From contig CAWKDC010000001.1 of assembly GCA_963848305.1 (NCBI GenBank), positions 224,001 through 288,000 of the forward strand: 64,000 nt of DNA. The letters are read 5' to 3'. Position numbers and translations under genes: made by a program. This DNA is from an uncultured Gammaproteobacteria bacterium. Its GTDB lineage: Bacteria; Pseudomonadota; Gammaproteobacteria; JABCZS01. The notes beneath the pieces were generated by a model. It made no database searches. It was not told the DNA's origin and saw only the letters and a program-made list of their open reading frames with translations. This document shows, piece after piece, positions 1,003 through 37,321 of this stretch (the stretch's first letter is position 1; each line of letters opens with the position of its first letter).

Positions 1003-1198
1003 AAGAAAAGGATTTTATATATATTAGATGATGGTATCTGAAATGGAAAGGCGTATAGGAAAGATAGTTCATTTAAATGCCAGTTAAATTGATTTTGCGA
1101 TCCCTTTGTTCACTAATCTTACTTGCTCAACATGTGTCATGTTGCAGTATTTATGGTAAAATATTGACATTTGAATTTTAAAGGAGCGAGGGTCTACT

Positions 1199-1833
1199 AT
1201 GGGCGAATTGCATTATGCAGCTGCCGCAGGGTCAGCCGAATCAGTCCGATTATTGCTTTCCTTAGGCGCTGATCCACACGCTAAAATTATACCTAGTGCA
1301 AATGAATCGGTTTATCTAAGGTTAAGAAAGCAACCAGCACTACCAGCTCTAAGAACCATCAATGGGTCGGTACCATTTTATGGATGGCACCTGAATTGAT
1401 ATCGACAGATCCCAAGTACAGCCAACAATCAGACATTTTTGCACTAGCAATCACCTTTTGGGAGATAGCCTCAAGCAAGATACCATTCGAAGAGGCCGAT
1501 AATTCAGTTGTGCCAGTCCTCATCGCCAGAGGAGATCGCGAAAAAATTCCTGCTGACTGCCCCCCAGAGTTTGGTCGCATTATCACACGTTGCTGGGCAC
1601 AAAAAGCGAGTGATCGTCTCGCGCTGGACAACGTAATTACTGAATTGAAACAAATGCATGGTGTTTCATCTGCTCCTGCAGCCGCATCATTGCCTGCCTA
1701 TCGAAACAATGTTGCACCTGCATCATCGGGTGCTTATACGCAACCGCAGCAACGGCCTCAGTATCAAGTAAATAATGTAAATTCTTTAACATCGACAACA
1801 CCCAACCCATTTACACAATTAAATAGGAAATGA
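1199..1833 (+). pseudogene. Internally deleted ankyrin-kinase gene (one ankyrin repeat fused out of frame to a kinase C-lobe and Q/N tail)
   Basis: 1199-1300 encodes LHYAAAAGSAESVRLLLSLGADP (ankyrin). From 1309 another frame reads GLSKVKKATSTTSSKNHQWVGTILWMAPEL...SDIFALAITFWE, closely paralogous to 5110-5677. The N-lobe, HRD and the DF of DFG are missing. Confidence 0.85.
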
Positions 1834-1837
1834 AATT

Positions 1838-3097
1838 ATGCTAAATCCAAATCGAGGATTAAATAATGTCTCGCAGATACCTGCAGAGCTTTCTGCCCTG
1901 CGTGTTAGAGCTCATTCTGGAGATAAAGAAGCGCAGTTTCAGTGGGGCGTAGAATATCATACCGGGAAAAATATACCGCAGGATTTGAATAAGGCTGCAC
2001 ATTGGTATTTGCAATCTGCAAACCAAGAGCATCGTAGCGCACAATTTAATTTAGGATTTCTTTATCAGAATTTGAATCTTCCACAATATTTGCCTTCAGC
2101 CATCTATTGGTATAAAAAAGCAGCAGCAAATGGCAGTACGCGCGCTCAGAAAGCATTGGAGCAATTGGATGAAGTCGAAAAACCCAAACAAGAAAATCCA
2201 GCGGTCGCTCCTGTTGCAAACGCTAATAACAATAATAATAAAGTAACTGAACCTAAAAAAACTTTAGTGCGCCCACCTGTAATCCCCTACAAAGCATTAA
2301 CCATTGGTAAAAAATTGGGCGAAGGTGCTTTTGGTGTTGTGTATCAAGCAAAGCGCGGATTAGAAGATGTCGTGGTGAAACAATTAAAATTACAGCCAAA
2401 TCAAGGATTATCTCCTGAGGCATTGGTTGATTTTGAAAATGAAGCCGGCGTTCTGGAGAAATTGCGCTCTCAATTCATTATCGCAATACGAGGTATTTGC
2501 ACACAACCCTATTGCATGGTCTTAGAATTTGCCTCGGGAGGTTCATTAGATGATTTGTTAAGGAAAAACACTTCATTAGATTGGGGTAAAAAATTAACCA
2601 TTGCATCGGATATTGGTAAAGGCTTAGCTTTTTTGCACAGCCAAGATCCTATTATATTACATCGAGATTTGAAAAGTGAAAATATATTACTCGATGAAAA
2701 TGGGCGTGCAAAATTAGGGGATTTTGGTTTGGCTAAATTAAAATATAAAACGCAAGTCACCACAGGAGCCGCAGGCACCATAACCCATATTGCACCAGAG
2801 TTGTTCACGGCGCGCCCACATCATAGCGAGGCAAGCGATGTGTACGCCTACGGGATCGTTTTATGTGAAATTGCCACGCGTCAAAAGCCCTTTGCGGGCA
2901 TACATCCTTATGATATTGCGCCCAAAGTCCTCCAAGGGGTACGTCCAGTCTTCGAACCAGAAAAAACAAACCCGCGCACCGCACCCGAGTATGCAGTATT
3001 GGTTGTGCATGCTTGGTCTCAAAAAGCTGAAAGCCGTCCCAAAATTACCGAGATTGTTCAGGGGATTGAAGAGCAGAAGAAGAAATTAGGTAAATAA
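1838..3097 (+). CDS. Sel1-repeat + eukaryote-like TKL-type protein kinase
   Basis: Two Sel1 repeats (AQFQWGVEY..AAHWYLQSA; AQFNLG..WYKKAA). Intact kinase motifs: GEGAFG, VVVK, HRDLKSEN, DFG, APE. Confidence 0.9.
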   Translation: MLNPNRGLNNVSQIPAELSALRVRAHSGDKEAQFQWGVEYHTGKNIPQDLNKAAHWYLQSANQEHRSAQFNLGFLYQNLNLPQYLPSAIYWYKKAAANGSTRAQKALEQLDEVEKPKQENPAVAPVANANNNNNKVTEPKKTLVRPPVIPYKALTIGKKLGEGAFGVVYQAKRGLEDVVVKQLKLQPNQGLSPEALVDFENEAGVLEKLRSQFIIAIRGICTQPYCMVLEFASGGSLDDLLRKNTSLDWGKKLTIASDIGKGLAFLHSQDPIILHRDLKSENILLDENGRAKLGDFGLAKLKYKTQVTTGAAGTITHIAPELFTARPHHSEASDVYAYGIVLCEIATRQKPFAGIHPYDIAPKVLQGVRPVFEPEKTNPRTAPEYAVLVVHAWSQKAESRPKITEIVQGIEEQKKKLGK

Positions 3098-3117
3098 ATA
3101 CAATCAAGGGGCGTATT

Positions 3118-5677
3118 GTGTTAAGAAAAATATTCACTGGAACTAGAATTTCACAAGACACACTCAAAAGAGTGCGTAATAATGATTCTGAGTTAACCAC
3201 ATTACATTTAGCGGTACAAGAATTAACTGATGAAGATATATTAATTCTGTGTGATGCACTTAAAACAAACACAACGCTAAGCGAGCTTCGCCTTGACAAC
3301 AACAGTATCAGTGCTAAAGGCGCTCAGGCTTTAGCCAAGAATACAACCCTGACCGATCTTCACCTTAGCTACAACAATATCGGTGATGAAGGAGCCCAAG
3401 CCTTGGCTCAAAACACCACGTTACGCAACCTTTTTCTTGCAAATTGCGAAATCGGGGATATTGGCGCTGCGGCCCTTGCCAAGAATACCACCCTGATTAC
3501 ACTTTTCCTAGACTGTAACACCCATATCGGTGCTGTAGGCGCCCAAGCTTTGGCTCAAAACACCAAGCTGCACACGCTTTTCCTTCGATATTGCAAAATG
3601 GGGGATATTGGCGCTGCGGCTCTTGCCAGGACTAGCACCCTGATTGAACTTGACCTTACTATGAACCACATCAGTGATACAGGCGCCCAGGCTCTGGCTC
3701 AAAACTCATCGTTGATAAGGCTTGAACTTGACTCCAACAATATCAGTGATAGAGGCGCTCAGGCCTTGGCTACAAACTTTACAATGTTCAAGCTTAGCCT
3801 TTCGAACAACCAAATCGGTGCTTCAGGGGCTCAAGCCTTGGCTCAAAACACCATGCTGTTCACGCTTAACCTTAGTAACGAAGGGCACTCCTTAACTGGC
3901 TATGGCCGCAACAAAATCGGTGATACAGGGCCAGGCTCTGGCTATGAATACCACACTGATCACACTTGAACTTGATGGCAACAAAATCAGTGATGTAGGT
4001 GCGCAGGCTTTGGCTAGGAGCAGCACGCTAGACAGACTTGGCCTTAGTTACAACAATATCAGTGATGTAGGTGCGCAGGCTTTGGCCAGGAACGGCACGC
4101 TAAACAGTCTTGGCCTTAGTTACAACAATATTAGCGAGGTAGGTGCCCAGGCTCTGGCTCAAAATACTTTGTTGACTGAGCTTGGTATGTATGGCCTCAA
4201 AATCAGCGAGAAAATCAGAGTTAATAATTGGAATGCGCTGCGTAAAAATAAAGATAAGCATAGAGAACGATCAAAGGCACTTATTTCAGCATGTAAATCC
4301 CAAAACCTATCACAGGTTAAATTGCTTCTCCAACAAGGCGTTCGCCCCTATGGAGAATACATCGATAACGCACCTCAAAACTCAACTAATGAAACATTCT
4401 TGCATTTAGCAGTACGTTTGCGTAATGCTGAATTGCTTGCGTTACTTTTGCCGAGAAATCCAGAGACCTCAGCAAGGAATGCTGATCACCTTACTTATAT
4501 AGAACTTGCCAAACAGATTGGATTTCCCATTGCTACGACAGCTGATTATACCAAACCAACGCCTGCAATCAGTTCAGCAAGCACAAGTTCGAGTTCGAGC
4601 ACAACCTCAAACCGCCCAGCTCCAGCGGCGCCTAATCTTATGAATGACGCCGGGAAAATTACTTTAGAGCTAAACATTCCCTTTAAACAACTCAAAATAG
4701 GTAAAGAATTAGGTCGGGGCGGATTTGGGATAGTGTATCAAGCAGCGATGGGGCATCAAGACGTTGCGGTAAAACAATTACAGCAAAAGTTATCTAGTGA
4801 TGCATTTGATGAGTTTCAAAAAGAAACAACACTCATGGCGCGATTACGTAATCCTAAGATTGTGCAGTTATATGGTGTATGTATTGAAAAGGACAGCCCG
4901 TTATGTATGGTGATGGAATTTATGTCTAATGGTTCTTTGTATGATTTCTTACATGGTAAATCCCCATTGCTTTGGCCGCTGTGTATGCAAATGGCCTTAG
5001 ACATGGCATTAGGATTACATTATTTACATGCATCACAAATTTTGCATCGTGATATAAAAAGTCCTAACGTATTATTAGATAAAAACATGAATGCCAAGCT
5101 CACGGATTTTGGTTTGTCTAAGGTTAAGAAAGAAACCAGCTCTACCAGCACCATGCATCATAAAGTAGTGGGCACTGCCTTATGGATGGCCCCAGAGCTC
5201 ATGGCACGTGCTCCAGCATACAGTGTACAATCTGATATTTTTGCATTAGCGATTACATTTTGGGAGCTTACATCCCGGAAGTTACCTTTTGAAGATACAG
5301 ATAACGCTGTTGTGCCCACATTGGTAATGAATGGCGAGCGTGAGGCAATTCCCGCTCATTGTACGCCAGGATTTAAAAGCATTATCACGCGCTGCTGGGC
5401 GCAAAAGGCAAATGATCGCCCTGGATTAGATATACTTATTTCTGAATTAAAACAAATGCAAGGAAATGTACCTGCCTCTGCACCTGGGATTGCAGCAATT
5501 CCTGCGCCAATTCACGCAGCAACGCCTGCTGCAAGACCTGCCTATCAAAACAATATAGCGCCGCCTTCGTCTTCTCCTAGTTATATGCAACAACAACAGC
5601 CTTTCTATCAAGTAAATAATTTAAATTCAGCATCATCGGGATCATCCAATCCCTTTAATCAATTCAATAGGAAATAA
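3118..5677 (+). CDS. LRR-ankyrin-TKL kinase, split by a frameshift at ~3930 (ORFs 3118-3969 and 3902-5677)
   Basis: 24-aa GAxALA LRR repeats continue across the frameshift (ACAGGGCCAGGCTCTG vs repeat consensus ACAGGCGCCCAGGCTCTG). Ankyrin repeat TFLHLAV. Kinase motifs GRGGFG, VAVK, HRDIKSPN, DFG, APE are intact. Confidence 0.85.
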
Positions 5678-5679
5678 AA

Positions 5680-7410
5680 ATGTTAGAAGTACTTGTTCAT
5701 ATTTATAACATAGCCTATCGGATTTGCAATCAAGTTGATCTTGCTCATGCAAATAAAAATCAATGCAAACGACTTGGTCTGCGCGTCAAATTAACAGTGG
5801 ATACGGTTCGTGATCTTGAAAAGAAATATGATGATGTACAGTATCAACCTGCTTTAACGAACTTGTGCGTTACATTGCAGCATTGTGATGAATTTATTGG
5901 CCAGTTTGGGCATAAAAATTGGGTGCAACGAGTGTTTAAAGCAGGAAATGATAAACTTGAATTTGAAGCAATTAATTTGAGTTTGCTTCAAGCAAATCAA
6001 TTGCTCAGTTTGGGTATCAACATTCAACAGGTGTTTGATCATGAACAAGATAAATCTGACCAGGCGGCAGATCAAGCCGCTATCATGGAAATGCTGTTCG
6101 TTATTGAAACGGCAGTTAATGCTAATCATAAAGAGCAAATGGCCGCCCATAAAGCATTACAAGAAATCATTGCGCAGCAATTTGTTTCTATGCGGGAAAG
6201 TTTTGAAGTCAAAATGGGCCGCCGTATGCAACCCAAATATAATATAGATCCTAAGCTGCATATATCTGTAAGTGATATTGATATATTAGAGAAAATTGCC
6301 GAAGGTTCATTGGGATTTATTTATAAAGGAACTTGGAATAATCGCACTGTTGCTGTTAAAACTTTAAAACTTCAATCAGCAGAAGGGGAAAAAGCACTTG
6401 TGCGTGAAGCGCAAATCATGAGCTCACTTATTCATCCAAATATTACACCTTTTTATGGCGTTTGTTTGGAAGCAGGACGCGTGTGTTTGATAATGGCGCA
6501 TCTTCAGAATGGTTCGCTATATGATTTTTTACTGAAAAAAAAATTAAGCTTAACCGAGCAACATACTATTGCGCTAGGGATCGTTGAGGGATTGGCTTAC
6601 CTGCATCAACAAAATAAATTGCATCGTGATTTAAAAAGTAAGAATGTGCTATTAAATGATAAATTGCAACCTAAATTACATAACTTTGGCTTGGCAAAAG
6701 TATTGGGTAATACCGTCATCAATAGTGCCCCAATCCAAGATACATTTTCTGAATGGGCAGCGCCAGAAACATTGCGGAACATAGGTCATTATACTGTAGC
6801 TAGTGATGTCTATAGCCTGGGTGTTGTTTTATGGGAAGTGTTTACCCAGAAAAGACCCCATTCACAACTATCGCAAATGCGCACAGATATGCCAAGCACT
6901 GTCCCGTCTGTGTATGTGAAAATTATTTCAGCTTGTTTGGATCAAGAACCAAATAAACGGCCAGTTTTAACAGACATAATGCAACAATTAAAAACTTATG
7001 AAACCCATCATGAGATTGATTCACGAAACATTTATTCTCAAGCACAAGAACAGGAGAGCAAGAAAAATTTTTTCGTAGCTTTCGAATTGTATAAACAATC
7101 AGCAGAGTTAGGGTATAAACGCGGATACACTAATGTTGGAACATTTTATCTAACAGGACGTGGTGGAGTTGTCCCTGTAGACAAGCCACAAGCTTACACT
7201 TGGTTTTTGCAAGGTGCAAAAGCAGGGCATGCACGTGCGCAATATAATGCGGCTGAAATGTTAAATACTGGTGATGGAATACCCAAAGATCAGCGAGCAG
7301 CACGACAATGGTATCGAACTGCTGCGCGCCAACAATATGAAATTGCTAAAATTCGGTGCGCAGAACTCAATATTGATACTGCACGTAGTCGTAGCGTTTC
7401 TCCAAAATAG
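5680..7410 (+). CDS. MLKL-like protein: N-terminal four-helix-bundle-like domain, pseudokinase, Sel1 repeats
   Basis: N-terminus (..NKNQCKRLGLRV..F..KNWVQRVFKAGNDKLEFEAIN..L..LSL) resembles the MLKL 4HB/brace region. The kinase fold has an AEGSLG loop, VAVK and HRD, with NFG replacing DFG. C-terminal Sel1 repeats. Confidence 0.8.
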   Translation: MLEVLVHIYNIAYRICNQVDLAHANKNQCKRLGLRVKLTVDTVRDLEKKYDDVQYQPALTNLCVTLQHCDEFIGQFGHKNWVQRVFKAGNDKLEFEAINLSLLQANQLLSLGINIQQVFDHEQDKSDQAADQAAIMEMLFVIETAVNANHKEQMAAHKALQEIIAQQFVSMRESFEVKMGRRMQPKYNIDPKLHISVSDIDILEKIAEGSLGFIYKGTWNNRTVAVKTLKLQSAEGEKALVREAQIMSSLIHPNITPFYGVCLEAGRVCLIMAHLQNGSLYDFLLKKKLSLTEQHTIALGIVEGLAYLHQQNKLHRDLKSKNVLLNDKLQPKLHNFGLAKVLGNTVINSAPIQDTFSEWAAPETLRNIGHYTVASDVYSLGVVLWEVFTQKRPHSQLSQMRTDMPSTVPSVYVKIISACLDQEPNKRPVLTDIMQQLKTYETHHEIDSRNIYSQAQEQESKKNFFVAFELYKQSAELGYKRGYTNVGTFYLTGRGGVVPVDKPQAYTWFLQGAKAGHARAQYNAAEMLNTGDGIPKDQRAARQWYRTAARQQYEIAKIRCAELNIDTARSRSVSPK

Positions 7411-7479: not shown

Positions 7480-8489
7480 ATGGAAGGTTTTGAAAGAAGG
7501 TGCAATACAATGATGTTACATGATAGGGCAGCAGAATATATGGCCAGATTTGGGACAGCATCCTCTGTTGCGCTCCTTGATCCGGCCTGTCACATTTTCT
7601 GCGGGACAGTTGTGTCGGGGATCATTGGCTACAAATTGTATTCGAATGATGTGATTGTTTTTGGGGATCCATTGTGCGAGCCTGCCAATCTGCACATTCT
7701 CATGCGTGAATTTGAAGATCATTTTGATCAACTATCTAGAAATATCGTCTATGTGGCTACCAGTGAAAATTTTGCACTGGCTTCTTCAGCATCGCATTGT
7801 GAAGCGCTTGTCGGTATTGGACACGAAATTATTTTAAATCCCACCCATGATCCCCGCTGCGAAACAGGGAAAGAAGCTTCTCATTTGCGTGGCAAATGCA
7901 ACCAAGCTGTGCACCAGGGGGTAATCGTGTCTGAATATATTGAGCCTAATATTACACTCGAAAAAAACATGGAAGATTTGGGGGAAACTTGGGTGAAAGG
8001 TCGTGAAGGTGCCCTCAAATTTATCTGCACCATGTAGATGTTTTTGCTCATAGAGAATATAAACGATACTTTTATGCTGAGCAACGGGGGAAATTGATCG
8101 GTTTTGTCATATTAAATCGAATGGAAGCGCATCACGGTTGGTTGCTGAGTTTATCACTTATTCATCAAGATGCACCCAAAGGAACGTCGGAGTTATTGAT
8201 TGTGTCTATTTTGGAAAAGTTAGGGAAGGAGAATTGTGAATATTTGACAATTGGGACAGTTCCTATCTCGACAATTGAAACAATCCAGGGGTTTGGAATA
8301 TTTAAAAGTATGTTGATCCGTGCCGGTTACGCATTGGCAAAACGATTTTTCAATCTGCATGATCGTGAATGTTATTGGAAAAAATTTCACCCGCGTATTG
8401 AGAACACGTACCTTGTTTTCAGAAAGCATAAGCTTGGTCTGACAGATGTTTTGAGCATCATCTGGGCTTTAAATGCTGCTGATGTCTAG
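7480..8489 (+). CDS. DUF2156 / phosphatidylglycerol lysyltransferase C-terminal-like protein, frameshifted at ~8010
   Basis: GDPLC motif in the first ORF and APKGTSELLI in the second. The second frame is open from ~8012 (PQIYLHHVDVFAHREYKRYFYAE). True start may be 7510 or 7513. Confidence 0.7.
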
Positions 8490-33888: not shown

Positions 33889-34028
33889 CACGCACCAGGC
33901 ATGTCTATGTCAACCATGTAATCAATGTTGATTAAGTACTTGATCCTTCATAACCAATCCTGATACTCTATGTGATACGCACACCATGTCATTTATGTAA
34001 TATTGGCTTACAAGGAGTTAAAGCGTCA

Positions 34029-35207
34029 ATGGAATTGGTTAAGATCAGATACCCCAATAATAGGATCTCATGGTCTGTTTTAAGCAATGATATTACCGTG
34101 GATCAGCTCAGAAATTGGATTATACATTTAGAAGAAATCAATCAGTCACCCAATACCATTCAGGCCTATGCTCGGCATATGGTTCGATTTGGGAATTATT
34201 TAGAAGCAAATGCCAAAACATTCAAAAAGATCTGCATTTCAGACTATGATCAGTTCCTTCAATGGCTTCCCTATGCGCTTTCAAATCCAGAGTTTCCAGG
34301 CAATGTCGTTTCGTTAAATCATCAACCAAAACGGCTTTCACCAGCACTGAAGAATCAAGTCCATTTGGCTGTGAAATCATTCTACAGATATTTGTCTGGA
34401 CAGCCTAATTTCGATTTTGACAGCGCTGAAGAATCAACCAGTTATGACAGCCCAGAAAGGTATAAACCATTTCTAGAGCATATTAATGCTCGTAGAACGA
34501 CAAGAACCAAGGATCGGTACCTACATGGTGATCCCGGTAAAGCTCAGAGAAGCGTCAGCAAACGACTAACCCCTGAAAACGTTTTAACGTTGATTAAGGC
34601 CTGCCACTTGATTCGAGATGCTTTCCTCGTGACACTTCTTTATAACACTGGCATGCGCATTGGAGAAGCTTTGGGGCTTAGACATACAGATATTGATCTG
34701 AAAGATGGCGTTATCTGGGTCATACCTCGGGCTGACAACGAAAACGGAGCTCGCGTCAAAGGCATGAAGACCCGAGCGATTCCCGTCATGAAGTACATAG
34801 TGGACATGTATGAGGATTACATCACAAGCGATGAGTATTTGGGCGCATTTGAATCTGGCACACAGTACGTGTTCTGCAATGTTCAAAAGTCACAAATTGG
34901 AAAAGCATTGTCCAAAAGCTATGGTGACAATCTCAAGAATTACCTCAAAAAAAGAACTGGCATCGAATTTACTTGGCACATGTTTAGGCATACACATGCC
35001 AGCGAAGCAATTGCAGATGGCTATAGCCTGCTTCAAGTATCTGATCGGTTAGGACATGCAAGCCCTCAAACAACAGTCAGTTTCTACAAACATTTGTTCA
35101 GCCATGAAATCAGAAAATGTCATTTAACTGGAGCAAAAAAGCTTGAAGAACGTTTAAGAGAGTTTAGTGCGACGCATACCAGCGAACGAGGTTTAAAATG
35201 GCTTTAA
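34029..35207 (+). CDS. Tyrosine recombinase, TnpA-like
   Basis: TGMRIGEALGL, HMFRHTHA and RLGHAS..TT..FY motifs; AAGGAG RBS upstream of 34029. Confidence 0.9.
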   Translation: MELVKIRYPNNRISWSVLSNDITVDQLRNWIIHLEEINQSPNTIQAYARHMVRFGNYLEANAKTFKKICISDYDQFLQWLPYALSNPEFPGNVVSLNHQPKRLSPALKNQVHLAVKSFYRYLSGQPNFDFDSAEESTSYDSPERYKPFLEHINARRTTRTKDRYLHGDPGKAQRSVSKRLTPENVLTLIKACHLIRDAFLVTLLYNTGMRIGEALGLRHTDIDLKDGVIWVIPRADNENGARVKGMKTRAIPVMKYIVDMYEDYITSDEYLGAFESGTQYVFCNVQKSQIGKALSKSYGDNLKNYLKKRTGIEFTWHMFRHTHASEAIADGYSLLQVSDRLGHASPQTTVSFYKHLFSHEIRKCHLTGAKKLEERLREFSATHTSERGLKWL

Positions 35208-37321
35208 CACTTGCATATATGACAGATGATTTAAATGAACAATACGAGGCTCAATTATCGTCTGCAATTTCGGTTATATCTCCGCTGCTTCTTAGCAATG
35301 ATGTTTGGGATCAGGAATTTGCAAATTCTGTACCGAAATTTGTTAATAAGCACATCGGTGCAAAAAGTCCTATTTCTTTCGCATCACTCCCCTCCTCCTT
35401 GAAGCTGGAGCTCAAATTATACTGGGCGAAATTGCTTTCAGACGATCGATGCAATTCGATGAGTGCAATTGAGAGAAGAAGACAATCAATGAGATGGTTC
35501 AACTCTGATGGAGCAAATATACTTTCCGATTTTAATGTCAAGACTTTATCTGATATTCCTCACCCAGAATTTCCGATAAATTGCATTGTCACATCTCGCT
35601 CAATCAAGAAGCACAATGATAGATTGTTGGAGCTGTATTCATGTTTTGAAGGGAATGGTGATCGACCTCCGCAAAAAATTTGTGTCGTCGATGATGCTAC
35701 AGGACGTGTCAATCAAAAAGAATATTTATCCACAAGGGTCACCATCATTGGGGATTTTCACAAGCAAGCTATTATAAATAGGGAACAGCTGCAACCAATG
35801 AATGGCCGGAACATTATTTTTATTAACGACCTTTACTCTGAAGAAAATGTACGATTCAAAGATAAACAACGGCAAACTGATACATATTTAAATTTTTTTC
35901 TATTCCCTCCTTGGCTGCGAGATGCCGCCAAAACGCACCTGCTTCAAAAGATATCCTTTGGCGAATTGGCACCAGGATCATTGCTTGGTTATTTTTCTAG
36001 GTTATTAAGTTTCAGAGATTTCATGCATGAAAGATTTGATATTCCACGCCCAAAACTTGTCACTGTTACTTTGATTGAAGACAATTATGTTGCCTGGGGC
36101 AATGAGAAAGGATTGGCGGGAAAGAACTGGTTTACCGACACCTTAGCGATGCTATCCACAGCGGGACGTATGTGGCCAAATGAGTGGCCTTCCCTATCAG
36201 TCTCAAATCGAGCGGCTAGAAAGATCAAAAAAACACATTACAAACAGGGGCTAGGTCGCATCGGTCAAAATCAAGAAGGTGCTGGACGCTCATATTCCCA
36301 GCGCATTGTGGATGAGCTTAATAGATCAATAAGTTCAGCACCAGATCCAATTCATGATATTTTTAGCATCATCATGGGCACTGGCATGAGAGCTGAAGAT
36401 GGGCATGCCCTCCTCTTTGATTGCCTTAAAGATGATCCAAATGATAATGATTTTATGCTTTTAACTTTTTGGCAAAATAAAGTAAGAAAATGGAATACAA
36501 AACCTTTATTAAAAAAAGATAAAGGCCATGCATATTTAATTGATTTAATTGCAGCCAGGCGAAAAAAGAATATTCATAAATACGGGAGAGAAACAAAATA
36601 CCTTTTTCCGTCCTTCACGGGGACGCAGGAGAACTTTCTAACGCCCGGATGGACAGTGCTTGAAATCAAGAAACGATGCATTGCGGATGACATCCGTGAT
36701 GAGACTAATAAACCTTTGAGCTTTTCATGGCATCCACTTCGACATACCAAGGGCACATCATTAGCCAAGGAAGGTCATGACGTAATGAGCATCATGATGG
36801 AGCTTGGACATGCCAGCCCTGATATGGCCGCTGTGTATGTTAACAATAGACTCGAATTAAAAAAACAAGCCCTCATGGAAAAAGGCAGTGGCAAATTCTT
36901 TACCATCGAAGGCAAAGTCGATACAAAAATTATGGAACTGATGGTAAGAAAGGAGCAGCTCAGCGCTACTAGAGTATGCGGTGGTGCTTGCTCTATGCCC
37001 AGTCAGCTTGGCGATTGGTGCGAGCACGCGAATGCCTGTTATACCTGTAAGCATTATCGGGCTGACGGAAAAGATATTGAGTTTTTTAAGCATGAGAAGC
37101 TTGCCATTACTGATTTAATTGAACAGCAAAAAATCGAAAGCAATGAGTTAAATGATGCCGGCCACAAACGTATGGCTGAAATACTGCAAAGACGCATGGC
37201 AAAAAACATGGACATCAACGCTTCGCTTGGCAACATTATTCAGGCAATAGAGACAACGGATCGATATCAAGGCGATAAACCAATGGCGAAGAAAATGAGT
37301 CTGGAGCAACCACATGATTAA
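35198..37321 (+). CDS. Large tyrosine recombinase, Tn554 TnpB-like
   Basis: TGMR, HPLRHT and LGHASPDM..VY motifs, plus a C-terminal G.C..P....C.HANAC.TC Zn-like motif. Confidence 0.88.
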   Translation: MALTLAYMTDDLNEQYEAQLSSAISVISPLLLSNDVWDQEFANSVPKFVNKHIGAKSPISFASLPSSLKLELKLYWAKLLSDDRCNSMSAIERRRQSMRWFNSDGANILSDFNVKTLSDIPHPEFPINCIVTSRSIKKHNDRLLELYSCFEGNGDRPPQKICVVDDATGRVNQKEYLSTRVTIIGDFHKQAIINREQLQPMNGRNIIFINDLYSEENVRFKDKQRQTDTYLNFFLFPPWLRDAAKTHLLQKISFGELAPGSLLGYFSRLLSFRDFMHERFDIPRPKLVTVTLIEDNYVAWGNEKGLAGKNWFTDTLAMLSTAGRMWPNEWPSLSVSNRAARKIKKTHYKQGLGRIGQNQEGAGRSYSQRIVDELNRSISSAPDPIHDIFSIIMGTGMRAEDGHALLFDCLKDDPNDNDFMLLTFWQNKVRKWNTKPLLKKDKGHAYLIDLIAARRKKNIHKYGRETKYLFPSFTGTQENFLTPGWTVLEIKKRCIADDIRDETNKPLSFSWHPLRHTKGTSLAKEGHDVMSIMMELGHASPDMAAVYVNNRLELKKQALMEKGSGKFFTIEGKVDTKIMELMVRKEQLSATRVCGGACSMPSQLGDWCEHANACYTCKHYRADGKDIEFFKHEKLAITDLIEQQKIESNELNDAGHKRMAEILQRRMAKNMDINASLGNIIQAIETTDRYQGDKPMAKKMSLEQPHD

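Follow-up and report, generated by a model that had tools for sequence, protein, structure and literature searches.

The last of four closely spaced, kinase-related genes in the genome of an uncultured gammaproteobacterium encodes, by sequence and predicted fold, a true homologue of MLKL, the executor of animal necroptosis, and follows directly on eukaryote-type kinase genes with intact catalytic motifs. The cluster occupies positions 1199-7410 of the analysed stretch of 64,000 nucleotides (contig CAWKDC010000001.1, forward-strand positions 224,001 to 288,000; hereafter the window), and in other genera, too, genes of these two kinds have been conserved side by side. We interpret the pair as a kinase-regulated module with an MLKL-type executor, which is conserved in uncultured Dot/Icm-bearing gammaproteobacteria and probably injected into protist hosts; to this predicted function we assign a probability of about 0.5. 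An earlier interpretation made from the DNA letters alone (the sequence-only reading) had proposed a necroptosis-like operon at this place and knew of no described bacterial operon with the full arrangement. We likewise found none described in the literature, nor any description of a bacterial kinase and MLKL gene pair. A 2022 review states that bacterial genomes had not yielded any clear MLKL homologue (PMC9612521), and a review on bacterial pseudokinases, in its available text, mentions MLKL solely in the references (PMC12599244).

The MLKL homologue and the kinases of the cluster

In Pfam searches the product of the last gene (gene 4) matched MLKL_N over residues 7-132 with 61.7 bits (E-value 7e-17; cut-off 27 bits); further along the chain, a kinase domain (1.5e-51) precedes two Sel1 repeats (2.3e-17). 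The comparison of its N-terminal 187 residues with all sequences of the Protein Data Bank (PDB) yielded seven matches, every one an MLKL (best E-value 5.9e-4), and a stretch of the form QCxRLGxRV in this part aligns with human MLKL. The AlphaFold2 model of the full-length protein, calculated from a 79-row alignment, has a predicted local distance difference test score (pLDDT) of 91.8 and a predicted template modelling score of 0.80; in it, five N-terminal helices and a brace-like helix of 58 residues (121-178) are followed by the kinase fold and the helices of the Sel1 repeats. Foldseek placed full-length mouse MLKL (pdb-code: 4BTF) on rank 1 of at least 500 PDB matches, with 462 aligned columns. 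Folded alone, the N-terminal domain reached a pLDDT of 88.9; ranks 1-10 of its Foldseek matches were MLKL executioner domains, followed by a gap to an E-value of 0.22, and VIA-align placed MLKL on ranks 1-2 with an identity of 22-23%. The bundle of gene 4 is thus homologous to that of animal MLKL by sequence and predicted fold, as the sequence-only reading had surmised. In comparison, plant MLKLs (AtMLKL1-3), RPW8-type coiled-coil domains (NRG1) and fungal HeLo/HELL domains reach an identity of only 9-13%, as against the 22-23% of animal MLKL; they are eukaryotic and become active through NLRs or amyloid templating rather than through the product of a neighbouring kinase gene.

Gene 4 had also been termed a pseudokinase, a designation which is supported by the changed DFG aspartate and Gly loop (NFG and AEGSLG, respectively) but neither by the retained HRD, Asn and Lys nor by the family as a whole. 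Among 79 full-length MLKL_N-kinase-Sel1 proteins of 540-680 aa, the kinase domain is devoid of at least one catalytic residue in 38, keeps the entire K/D/N/D set in 41 and keeps the Lys in 76, and in three of 12 close relatives the kinase fold is wholly absent, the protein consisting of MLKL_N and Sel1. Judged from these residues, the MLKL-linked kinase fold appears to be under relaxed catalytic constraint, like that of MLKL, without being uniformly dead. The activation segment of gene 4 is rich in Ser and Thr and poorly ordered in the model (pLDDT <50 at residues 344-351).

The two complete kinases encoded upstream look catalytically intact, in keeping with the active kinases inferred earlier, gene 1 being a remnant (see below). 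Gene 2 combines two Sel1 repeats with a kinase domain (3e-48) containing GEGAFG, VVVK, HRDLKSEN and DFG, and gene 3 combines LRR_6 (4e-43) and Ank_2 with a kinase domain (7e-63) containing GRGGFG, VAVK, HRDIKSPN and DFG. All 11 partner kinases compared, i.e. these two and nine from relatives, retain the Gly loop, the β3 Lys, HRDxKxxN, DFG and GT..WMAPE. When the gene 3 kinase was compared with the PDB, the 60 top-ranking matches comprised CTR1, TAK1, MAP3K12, MLK4 and the Tec family members ITK/BTK but no RIPK, and from these closest solved kinases we take the partner kinases to be TKL-like. The RHIM core has the consensus [IV]Q[IVLC]G, and nothing resembling it was found in 15 partner/executor proteins. 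A specific likeness to RIPK3 is consequently not borne out; the partner kinases differ from RIPK1 and RIPK3 in their closest relatives, in the missing RHIM-like core and in their ANK, LRR or Sel1 repeats. The likeness to the RIPK3-MLKL couple lies instead in the general layout, namely an active kinase together with a protein in which a brace links the four-helix-bundle executioner domain to a kinase fold that tends to shed catalytic residues yet keeps the β3 Lys. In contrast to RIPK3 and MLKL, the bacterial genes form an operon-like pair whose activation by phosphorylation is presumed, and in contrast to animal MLKL, the bacterial protein ends in Sel1 repeats and half of its family retains the canonical catalytic set.

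A quick IQ-TREE kinase tree of 74 rows (P0025 was dropped because of its too short kinase match, and human/mouse RIPK and MLKL sequences were left out) groups partner and MLKL-linked kinases in congruent subclades on an unresolved backbone, and it warrants neither the naming of a donor lineage nor a placement as sister to RIPK or to the MLKL pseudokinases.

Conservation of the pair, a second head and Dot/Icm genomes

The pairing was counted on loci found with Pfam MLKL_N alone. This domain is present in six of 41 related genomes (10 places) and in none of 14 controls. Nine of 400 genomes sampled from the class contain it, as compared with none of 400 sampled from the rest of the phylum, and it is absent from the two other genomes of the genus. 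At 17 of the 23 MLKL_N loci an intact TKL-type kinase gene is found in the same-strand cluster, so that the kinase and MLKL-like genes are co-conserved as the proposed operon implied. The relatives contribute 10 of 10 loci, all with an intact repeat-kinase gene; eight of these pairs adjoin at 2-38 nt, one contains a 263-aa Sel1 open reading frame (ORF) in between, and in one the MLKL gene stands behind a second MLKL gene. In the class sample, seven of 13 further loci have a kinase neighbour, this count leaving out two places, a fragment and a sub-threshold match.

The family extends well beyond these genomes. A scan of species genomes with the alignment of the partner kinases gave 332 relatives, the best 71 loci of which are all in metagenome-assembled genomes (MAGs) with the labels Gammaproteobacteria, Legionellales, Coxiellaceae, Francisellaceae, Candidatus Berkiella and, in one case, Chlamydiales; further pairs were found among these loci, including one in the Chlamydiales-labelled MAG. 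A profile of the N-terminal domain matched 1,235 sequence-cluster representatives at E-values ≤0.001, 452 at ≤1e-10 and 67 at ≤1e-30, and a pattern search from a single protein gave 21 matches with no relative among them. Of 17 long relatives, five have the order TPR-MLKL_N-kinase-Sel1, three combine MLKL_N with two kinase domains and two carry NHL repeats, one of the latter (P0209) being named as rotifer. Rotifer MLKLs have been proposed to stem from gene transfer (PMC11476962). One family member had been deposited as 'hypothetical protein' from a groundwater MAG labelled Coxiella sp. In the metagenome proteins P0192, P0197 and P0215, a single chain contains MLKL_N and, behind it, two kinase domains, together with TPR, ANK or SH3 domains; these proteins may be fused forms of the kinase and MLKL pair.

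A second pair in the same genome (termed G000; G000:C1:398003-401198, i.e. L092 6003-9198, - strand) consists of a Sel1-kinase, 39% identical to gene 2 over the full length, and, 10 nt further on, a 624-aa protein. In the latter, a TIR/SEFIR-like head precedes the pseudokinase (HRH, DLG) and the Sel1 repeats, and the kinase and Sel1 part is 30% identical to gene 4. The head matches TIR_2 with 7.6e-4, below the cut-off, and the PADLOC profile bSEFIR with 9.8e-10; by Atlas features its best matches are SEFIR/TIR clusters (score 0.90), with the ten best named matches in one family/clan. Homologues of the head exceed the Pfam cut-offs (L122 with 28.9 bits for TIR_2 and 25.5 bits for SEFIR, L121 with 28.5 bits for TIR_2), and a phmmer search of the head against the PDB gave two chance-level matches only. 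Such heads recur in nine of the 41 relatives; an intact kinase gene adjoins the head gene upstream, at 10-17 nt, in four of 10 loci examined within 1.5-kb flanks, and G007, G005 and G014 show the pairing of G000. The second pair and its recurrence suggest a unit of an intact kinase and a protein of the type death head-(kinase fold)-Sel1, in which the head appears to be interchangeable between a four-helix bundle and a TIR/SEFIR-like domain.

The genome of the window measures 1.89 Mb with ca. 41% GC and contains Dot/Icm genes, DotI/IcmL (4e-55) and DotH/IcmK being located at G000:C1:920666-922322. DotI/IcmL is present in all nine MLKL_N-positive genomes of the class sample, as compared with 83 of the 391 others, a difference whose Fisher p value (1.3e-6; 2.5e-5 without G000 and a weak match) is overstated owing to the relatedness of the genomes. 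The nine positive genomes are 1.3-2.5 Mb in size and carry nine family codes, and the MLKL_N family can number 5-8 copies within one small genome. LRR_6, ANK, Sel1, TKL-like kinase and MLKL_N are the eukaryote-like domains of the cluster. Eukaryote-like kinase effectors (LegK family and others) are known from Legionella and Coxiella, and effector/metaeffector pairs are often encoded side by side. The present genes share with these effectors the eukaryote-type kinases, the repeat proteins in Dot/Icm genomes and the side-by-side arrangement of linked genes; compared with LegK-type effectors, the kinases of the cluster are TKL-like and carry LRR_6, ANK or Sel1 repeats. A Legionella or Coxiella effector with an MLKL executioner domain, or a kinase and MLKL pair, was not found described in the literature. 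The 70% portion of S/T/N/Q/G/P/A in the gene 3 tail is suggestive only as a translocation signal.

A related published case is the Legionellales amoeba symbiont 'Candidatus Centrionella anaeramoebae', for which 24 protein kinases and 41 ankyrin proteins are reported in a preprint (bioRxiv 10.64898/2026.04.11.717937). Its Figure 9B legend lists MLKL, ePK and SEL1 among effector-candidate domains; the preprint text is silent on the MLKL domain, a kinase neighbour or an operon, and figures or supplements may show more. Bell-domain/BASS systems are the nearest described bacterial analogues, Bell-domain executors being known in bacterial defence (bioRxiv 10.1101/2020.01.06.895854, 10.1101/2024.11.07.622273). 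In both arrangements, the gene of a helical death domain directed at membranes stands next to the gene of its controlling, or presumed controlling, partner. However, the Bell/BASS partner is an NLR (NB-ARC or NACHT) sharing the BASS amyloid motif of the executor and signalling by amyloid templating in filamentous free-living bacteria, whereas the MLKL_N partner is a kinase (17 of 23 loci) in small Dot/Icm genomes and, unlike the Bell domain, the executor domain described here matches Pfam MLKL_N itself.

Gene layout, reading frames and surroundings

ORFs and Pfam matches agree with the sequence-only reading in that the cluster consists of four genes on the + strand with kinase-type domains, spaced by 4, 20 and 2 nt. 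Table 1 summarizes the features.

Table 1. Positions of the features of the cluster in the window
Feature	Position	Strand	Basis
Promoter-like site, GTGTCA-17-TAAAAT with TG	1134..1162	+	Consensus match; sole one in upstream spacer
Gene 1, first frame: 66-aa ankyrin-repeat fragment	1199..1399	+	Pfam Ank 1.5e-05; 30% identical to gene 3 ORF residues 167-219
Gene 1, second frame: kinase C-lobe alone and Q/N/S-rich tail ending NRK	1384..1833	+	Pfam PK_Tyr_Ser-Thr, profile 171-258 of 258
Gene 2, 419 aa: two Sel1 repeats, TKL-type kinase (intact)	1838..3097	+	Pfam; motifs
Gene 3: ca. 11 LRR_6 units, ANK repeats, intact TKL-type kinase, Q/N/S-rich tail	3118..5677	+	Pfam; motifs; repeat count
Gene 3/gene 4 junction: AATAGGAAA, TAA, AA, ATG	5666..5682	+	AGGA 7 nt ahead of start codon
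Gene 4: MLKL-like protein, 576 aa	5680..7410	+	Pfam; AlphaFold2; Foldseek
Gene 4, four-helix-bundle executioner domain, residues 7-132	5698..6075	+	Pfam MLKL_N
Gene 4, long brace-like helix, residues 121-178, bundle to kinase fold	6040..6213	+	DSSP on model
Gene 4, kinase fold, residues 201-437; AEGSLG Gly loop, VAVK, HRDLKSKN, NFG for DFG (nt 6682-6690)	6280..6990	+	Pfam; motifs; model
Gene 4, C-terminal Sel1 repeat helices, residues 464-569	7069..7386	+	Pfam Sel1 2.3e-17; model helices

Genes 1 and 3 share the terminal nine bases AATAGGAAA before the stop codon (gene 1: 1824-1832, or 1824-1835 with the stop; gene 3: 5666-5677 with the stop). In both genes this ending places AGGA 7 nt before the next ATG, so that the tailed kinases would supply the ribosome-binding sequence of the following gene, as had been noticed earlier. 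Neither promoter-like sites (14 observed, 15.9 expected from shuffles) nor terminators (9 observed, 7.2 expected) are in excess in the region. A direct repeat of the form TTAAAT-N5-TTAAAT at window 1073-1089 (+), 110 nt ahead of the cluster, is the sole such match in 64 kb and resembles the PmrA box of Dot/Icm regulons (TTAA-N7-TTAA). It was rejected as evidence, as 0.89 matches are expected in the window and it is found upstream of only one of 20 clusters.

Gene 1 contains no N-lobe, HRD or DFG and shares 57% identity, over the C-lobe and the tail, with residues 429-591 of gene 3; it is a deletion remnant of a gene-3-like paralogue. The junction between its two frames is identical in public contigs (X1, 1279-1480; X3, 1276-1605) and the remnant is therefore real. 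The four-gene size of the present cluster accordingly reflects a module enlarged by duplication, one copy being a dead remnant. The sequence-only reading had recognized gene 1 as an ankyrin-kinase remnant but missed its origin from a gene-3-like paralogue and a frame break in gene 3 near 3930, where the gene is divided into two ORFs (3118-3969 and 3902-5677). In a 507-nt X1 contig (3828-4332, depth 3.3), otherwise identical, two extra bases behind 3930 keep the frame open; for this reason the break is regarded as an assembly error or strain variant. Near-identical DNA was found in public contigs of four runs, each from a different study of soil or wetland, 13/13, 14/14, 10/11 and 4/4 contig pieces being at least 99% identical to the region; the best-matching run may be the source sample, which renders the contig comparison not fully independent.

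Two further split genes were observed. DotH/IcmK at G000:C1:920666-921368 is distributed over two frames (profile 1-99 in one, 96-236 in the other), which hints at assembly indel errors or a decaying secretion system; a split in a core Dot/Icm gene makes indel errors in the assembly likely. Downstream of the cluster, at window 7480-8489 (+), ORFs 7480-8037 and 8094-8489 in different frames correspond to the beginning and the end, respectively, of the MprF C-terminal domain (lysyl-phosphatidylglycerol synthase), representing either a split gene or a further assembly indel. Eukaryotic contamination is rejected in view of the 1.58-Mb contig with Dot/Icm and housekeeping genes, the bacterial gene spacing and the ribosome-binding sites; a D-Ala-D-Ala ligase gene is located ca. 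1.5 kb upstream of the window start.

The neighbouring genes of the cluster and of other MLKL_N loci are eukaryote-like, comprising RNase III-ANK, ParA-like-OTU, ANK, LRR, TPR and nonribosomal peptide synthetase-NB-ARC-OTU architectures, and no defence genes were found among the neighbours of the MLKL_N loci or of the second pair. In the window, a 545-aa protein (9573-11210, +) displays an unusual eukaryote-like combination of an RNase III domain and ankyrin repeats; a 1094-aa protein (13732-17016, +) carries an N-terminal ParA/MinD-type P-loop and an OTU cysteine protease near the C-terminus. At L017 12626-18511 (G006 contig C7, - strand), 2.3 kb from an MLKL pair, a 1961-aa protein combines AMP-binding, carrier and thioesterase domains with subsequent NB-ARC, TPR and OTU domains. 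Two adjacent tyrosine recombinase/integrase genes (411 and 707 aa) at window 33972-37321 (+), ca. 26 kb from the cluster and followed by unannotated ORFs, may belong to a mobile element.

Among the profiles of PADLOC 2.0, matches were confined to the kinase domains (mad6 with 8e-87, and PD-T4-6) and the head of the second pair (bSEFIR); proteins with MLKL_N but without a kinase domain gave no match. The mad6 profile of the MADS defence system outscores the Pfam kinase profiles on genes 2-4 and the L092 pair (up to 290.7 as compared with 212.8 bits), and the mad6 defence kinase may be a close relative of the TKL-like partner kinase group.

Function and competing explanations

In the proposed module, a catalytically intact TKL-like kinase with ANK, LRR or Sel1 repeats, predicted from the upstream gene, would act on the predicted product of the downstream gene, an MLKL homologue built of the four-helix-bundle executioner, the brace helix, an often dead kinase fold and Sel1 repeats. 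Like RIPK3 in the case of MLKL, the partner kinase might bind or phosphorylate its MLKL-like neighbour at the kinase fold or the brace, and the freed bundle might then oligomerise and permeabilise a membrane. The repeats might aim the kinase or make it responsive to a host factor. The site of action would be the protist host after Dot/Icm translocation, where the module might cause e.g. vacuole rupture or host lysis for exit.

Several observations weigh against such a module. Six of the 23 MLKL_N loci are without an adjacent kinase gene (four at contig edges or on 4-kb or short contigs, two in one complete genome), and the kinase gene, mostly upstream of the MLKL-like gene, lies downstream in three pairs. 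Since 41 of the 79 MLKL-linked kinase folds look catalytically competent, 'pseudokinase' does not appear to be a family trait, and the gene 4 copy still has HRD and Lys. TIR/SEFIR heads and kinases of this type are also components of phage-defence systems (PADLOC matches to bSEFIR, 9.8e-10, and mad6, 8e-87). With gene 1 dead and gene 3 broken in the assembly, the locus may be decaying.

The main rival explanation is a bacterial immunity of the abortive-infection type, in which the repeat-kinase senses phage or stress and the executor destroys the membrane or the NAD pool of its own cell. A repeat sensor, a switch and a swappable death head, either a four-helix bundle or TIR/SEFIR, indeed correspond to the grammar of immune systems; the PADLOC profiles point in the same direction, bSEFIR matching the head of the second pair and mad6 and PD-T4-6 being the best matches of the kinases, and Bell-domain executors have been described in bacterial defence. 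However, MLKL_N was found solely in small Dot/Icm genomes of 1.3-2.5 Mb (all nine positives of the class sample, none of the 400 other genomes of the phylum), expanded to 5-8 copies per small genome as in effector families, with kinases and repeats of eukaryotic type and no defence genes nearby, and the PADLOC matches on the cluster cover the kinase domain only, leaving MLKL_N proteins without this domain unmatched. The restriction to small Dot/Icm genomes and the eukaryote-like neighbours favour injected effectors over a bacterial immune circuit, the two functions offered by the sequence-only reading; the immune circuit we consider distinctly unlikely. A second rival explanation is that of independent injected effectors with no coupling between kinase and MLKL. 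The kinases would phosphorylate host proteins, whereas the MLKL-like protein would work by itself or serve as a decoy, either sequestering kinases of the host or shutting off one of its death pathways, and the adjacency of the genes would result from tandem duplication and domain shuffling. Duplication is visible in the identities between genes 1 and 3 (57%) and between gene 2 and the distant Sel1-kinase (39%), some MLKL_N genes have no kinase neighbour, the 41 canonical MLKL-linked kinase folds may be active kinases themselves, and viral MLKL homologues sequestering RIPK3 appear in the reference list of PMC12599244. Against uncoupled effectors, the adjoining same-strand order (2-38 nt) is kept across genera, in the Chlamydiales-labelled MAG and with a different head, and the partner subclades are congruent. 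Moreover, relatives devoid of the kinase fold still have the executioner domain, the opposite of viral decoys, which reportedly have no four-helix bundle. Independent effectors thus appear unlikely.

A decaying relic of eukaryote-derived genes, with no present function in this genome, would fit the gene 1 remnant, the broken gene 3, the likewise split MprF-like gene downstream and the absence of MLKL_N from the two other genomes of the genus. Yet genes 2 and 4 are intact, the frame of gene 3 is open in an independent contig, with the reservation made above, and the split core Dot/Icm gene suggests assembly indels; the 1,235 representatives at E-values ≤0.001, the conserved residues and the conserved pairing also disagree with a relic, which we regard as highly improbable. 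We therefore retain the kinase-regulated, injected MLKL-type module. Its wider reading, the RIPK3-to-MLKL logic as a bacterial two-gene device in which an active TKL-type kinase would license an executioner on a scaffold of kinase fold and Sel1 repeats with an interchangeable killing head (MLKL four-helix bundle or TIR/SEFIR), injected as a 'necroptosis kit' to lyse or disable protist hosts, and a candidate route for MLKL-type genes between bacteria and eukaryotes, is put forward tentatively, as possible rather than probable.

A clear MLKL homologue thus occurs in bacteria in operon-like pairs with intact kinases, and, like that of MLKL, its kinase fold has undergone repeated decay. If the kinase controls the executor, kinase-licensed membrane killing would either not be a eukaryotic invention or would have been captured whole by intracellular bacteria. 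The pair would then offer a simple two-gene system for understanding the restraint of a killer four-helix bundle by a kinase fold and its subsequent release. Should the module instead serve bacterial immunity, a necroptosis-like arm would be added to the immune mechanisms common to bacteria and animals. As an injected, kinase-regulated executor, it would provide uncultured amoeba parasites with a way to leave or kill their hosts.

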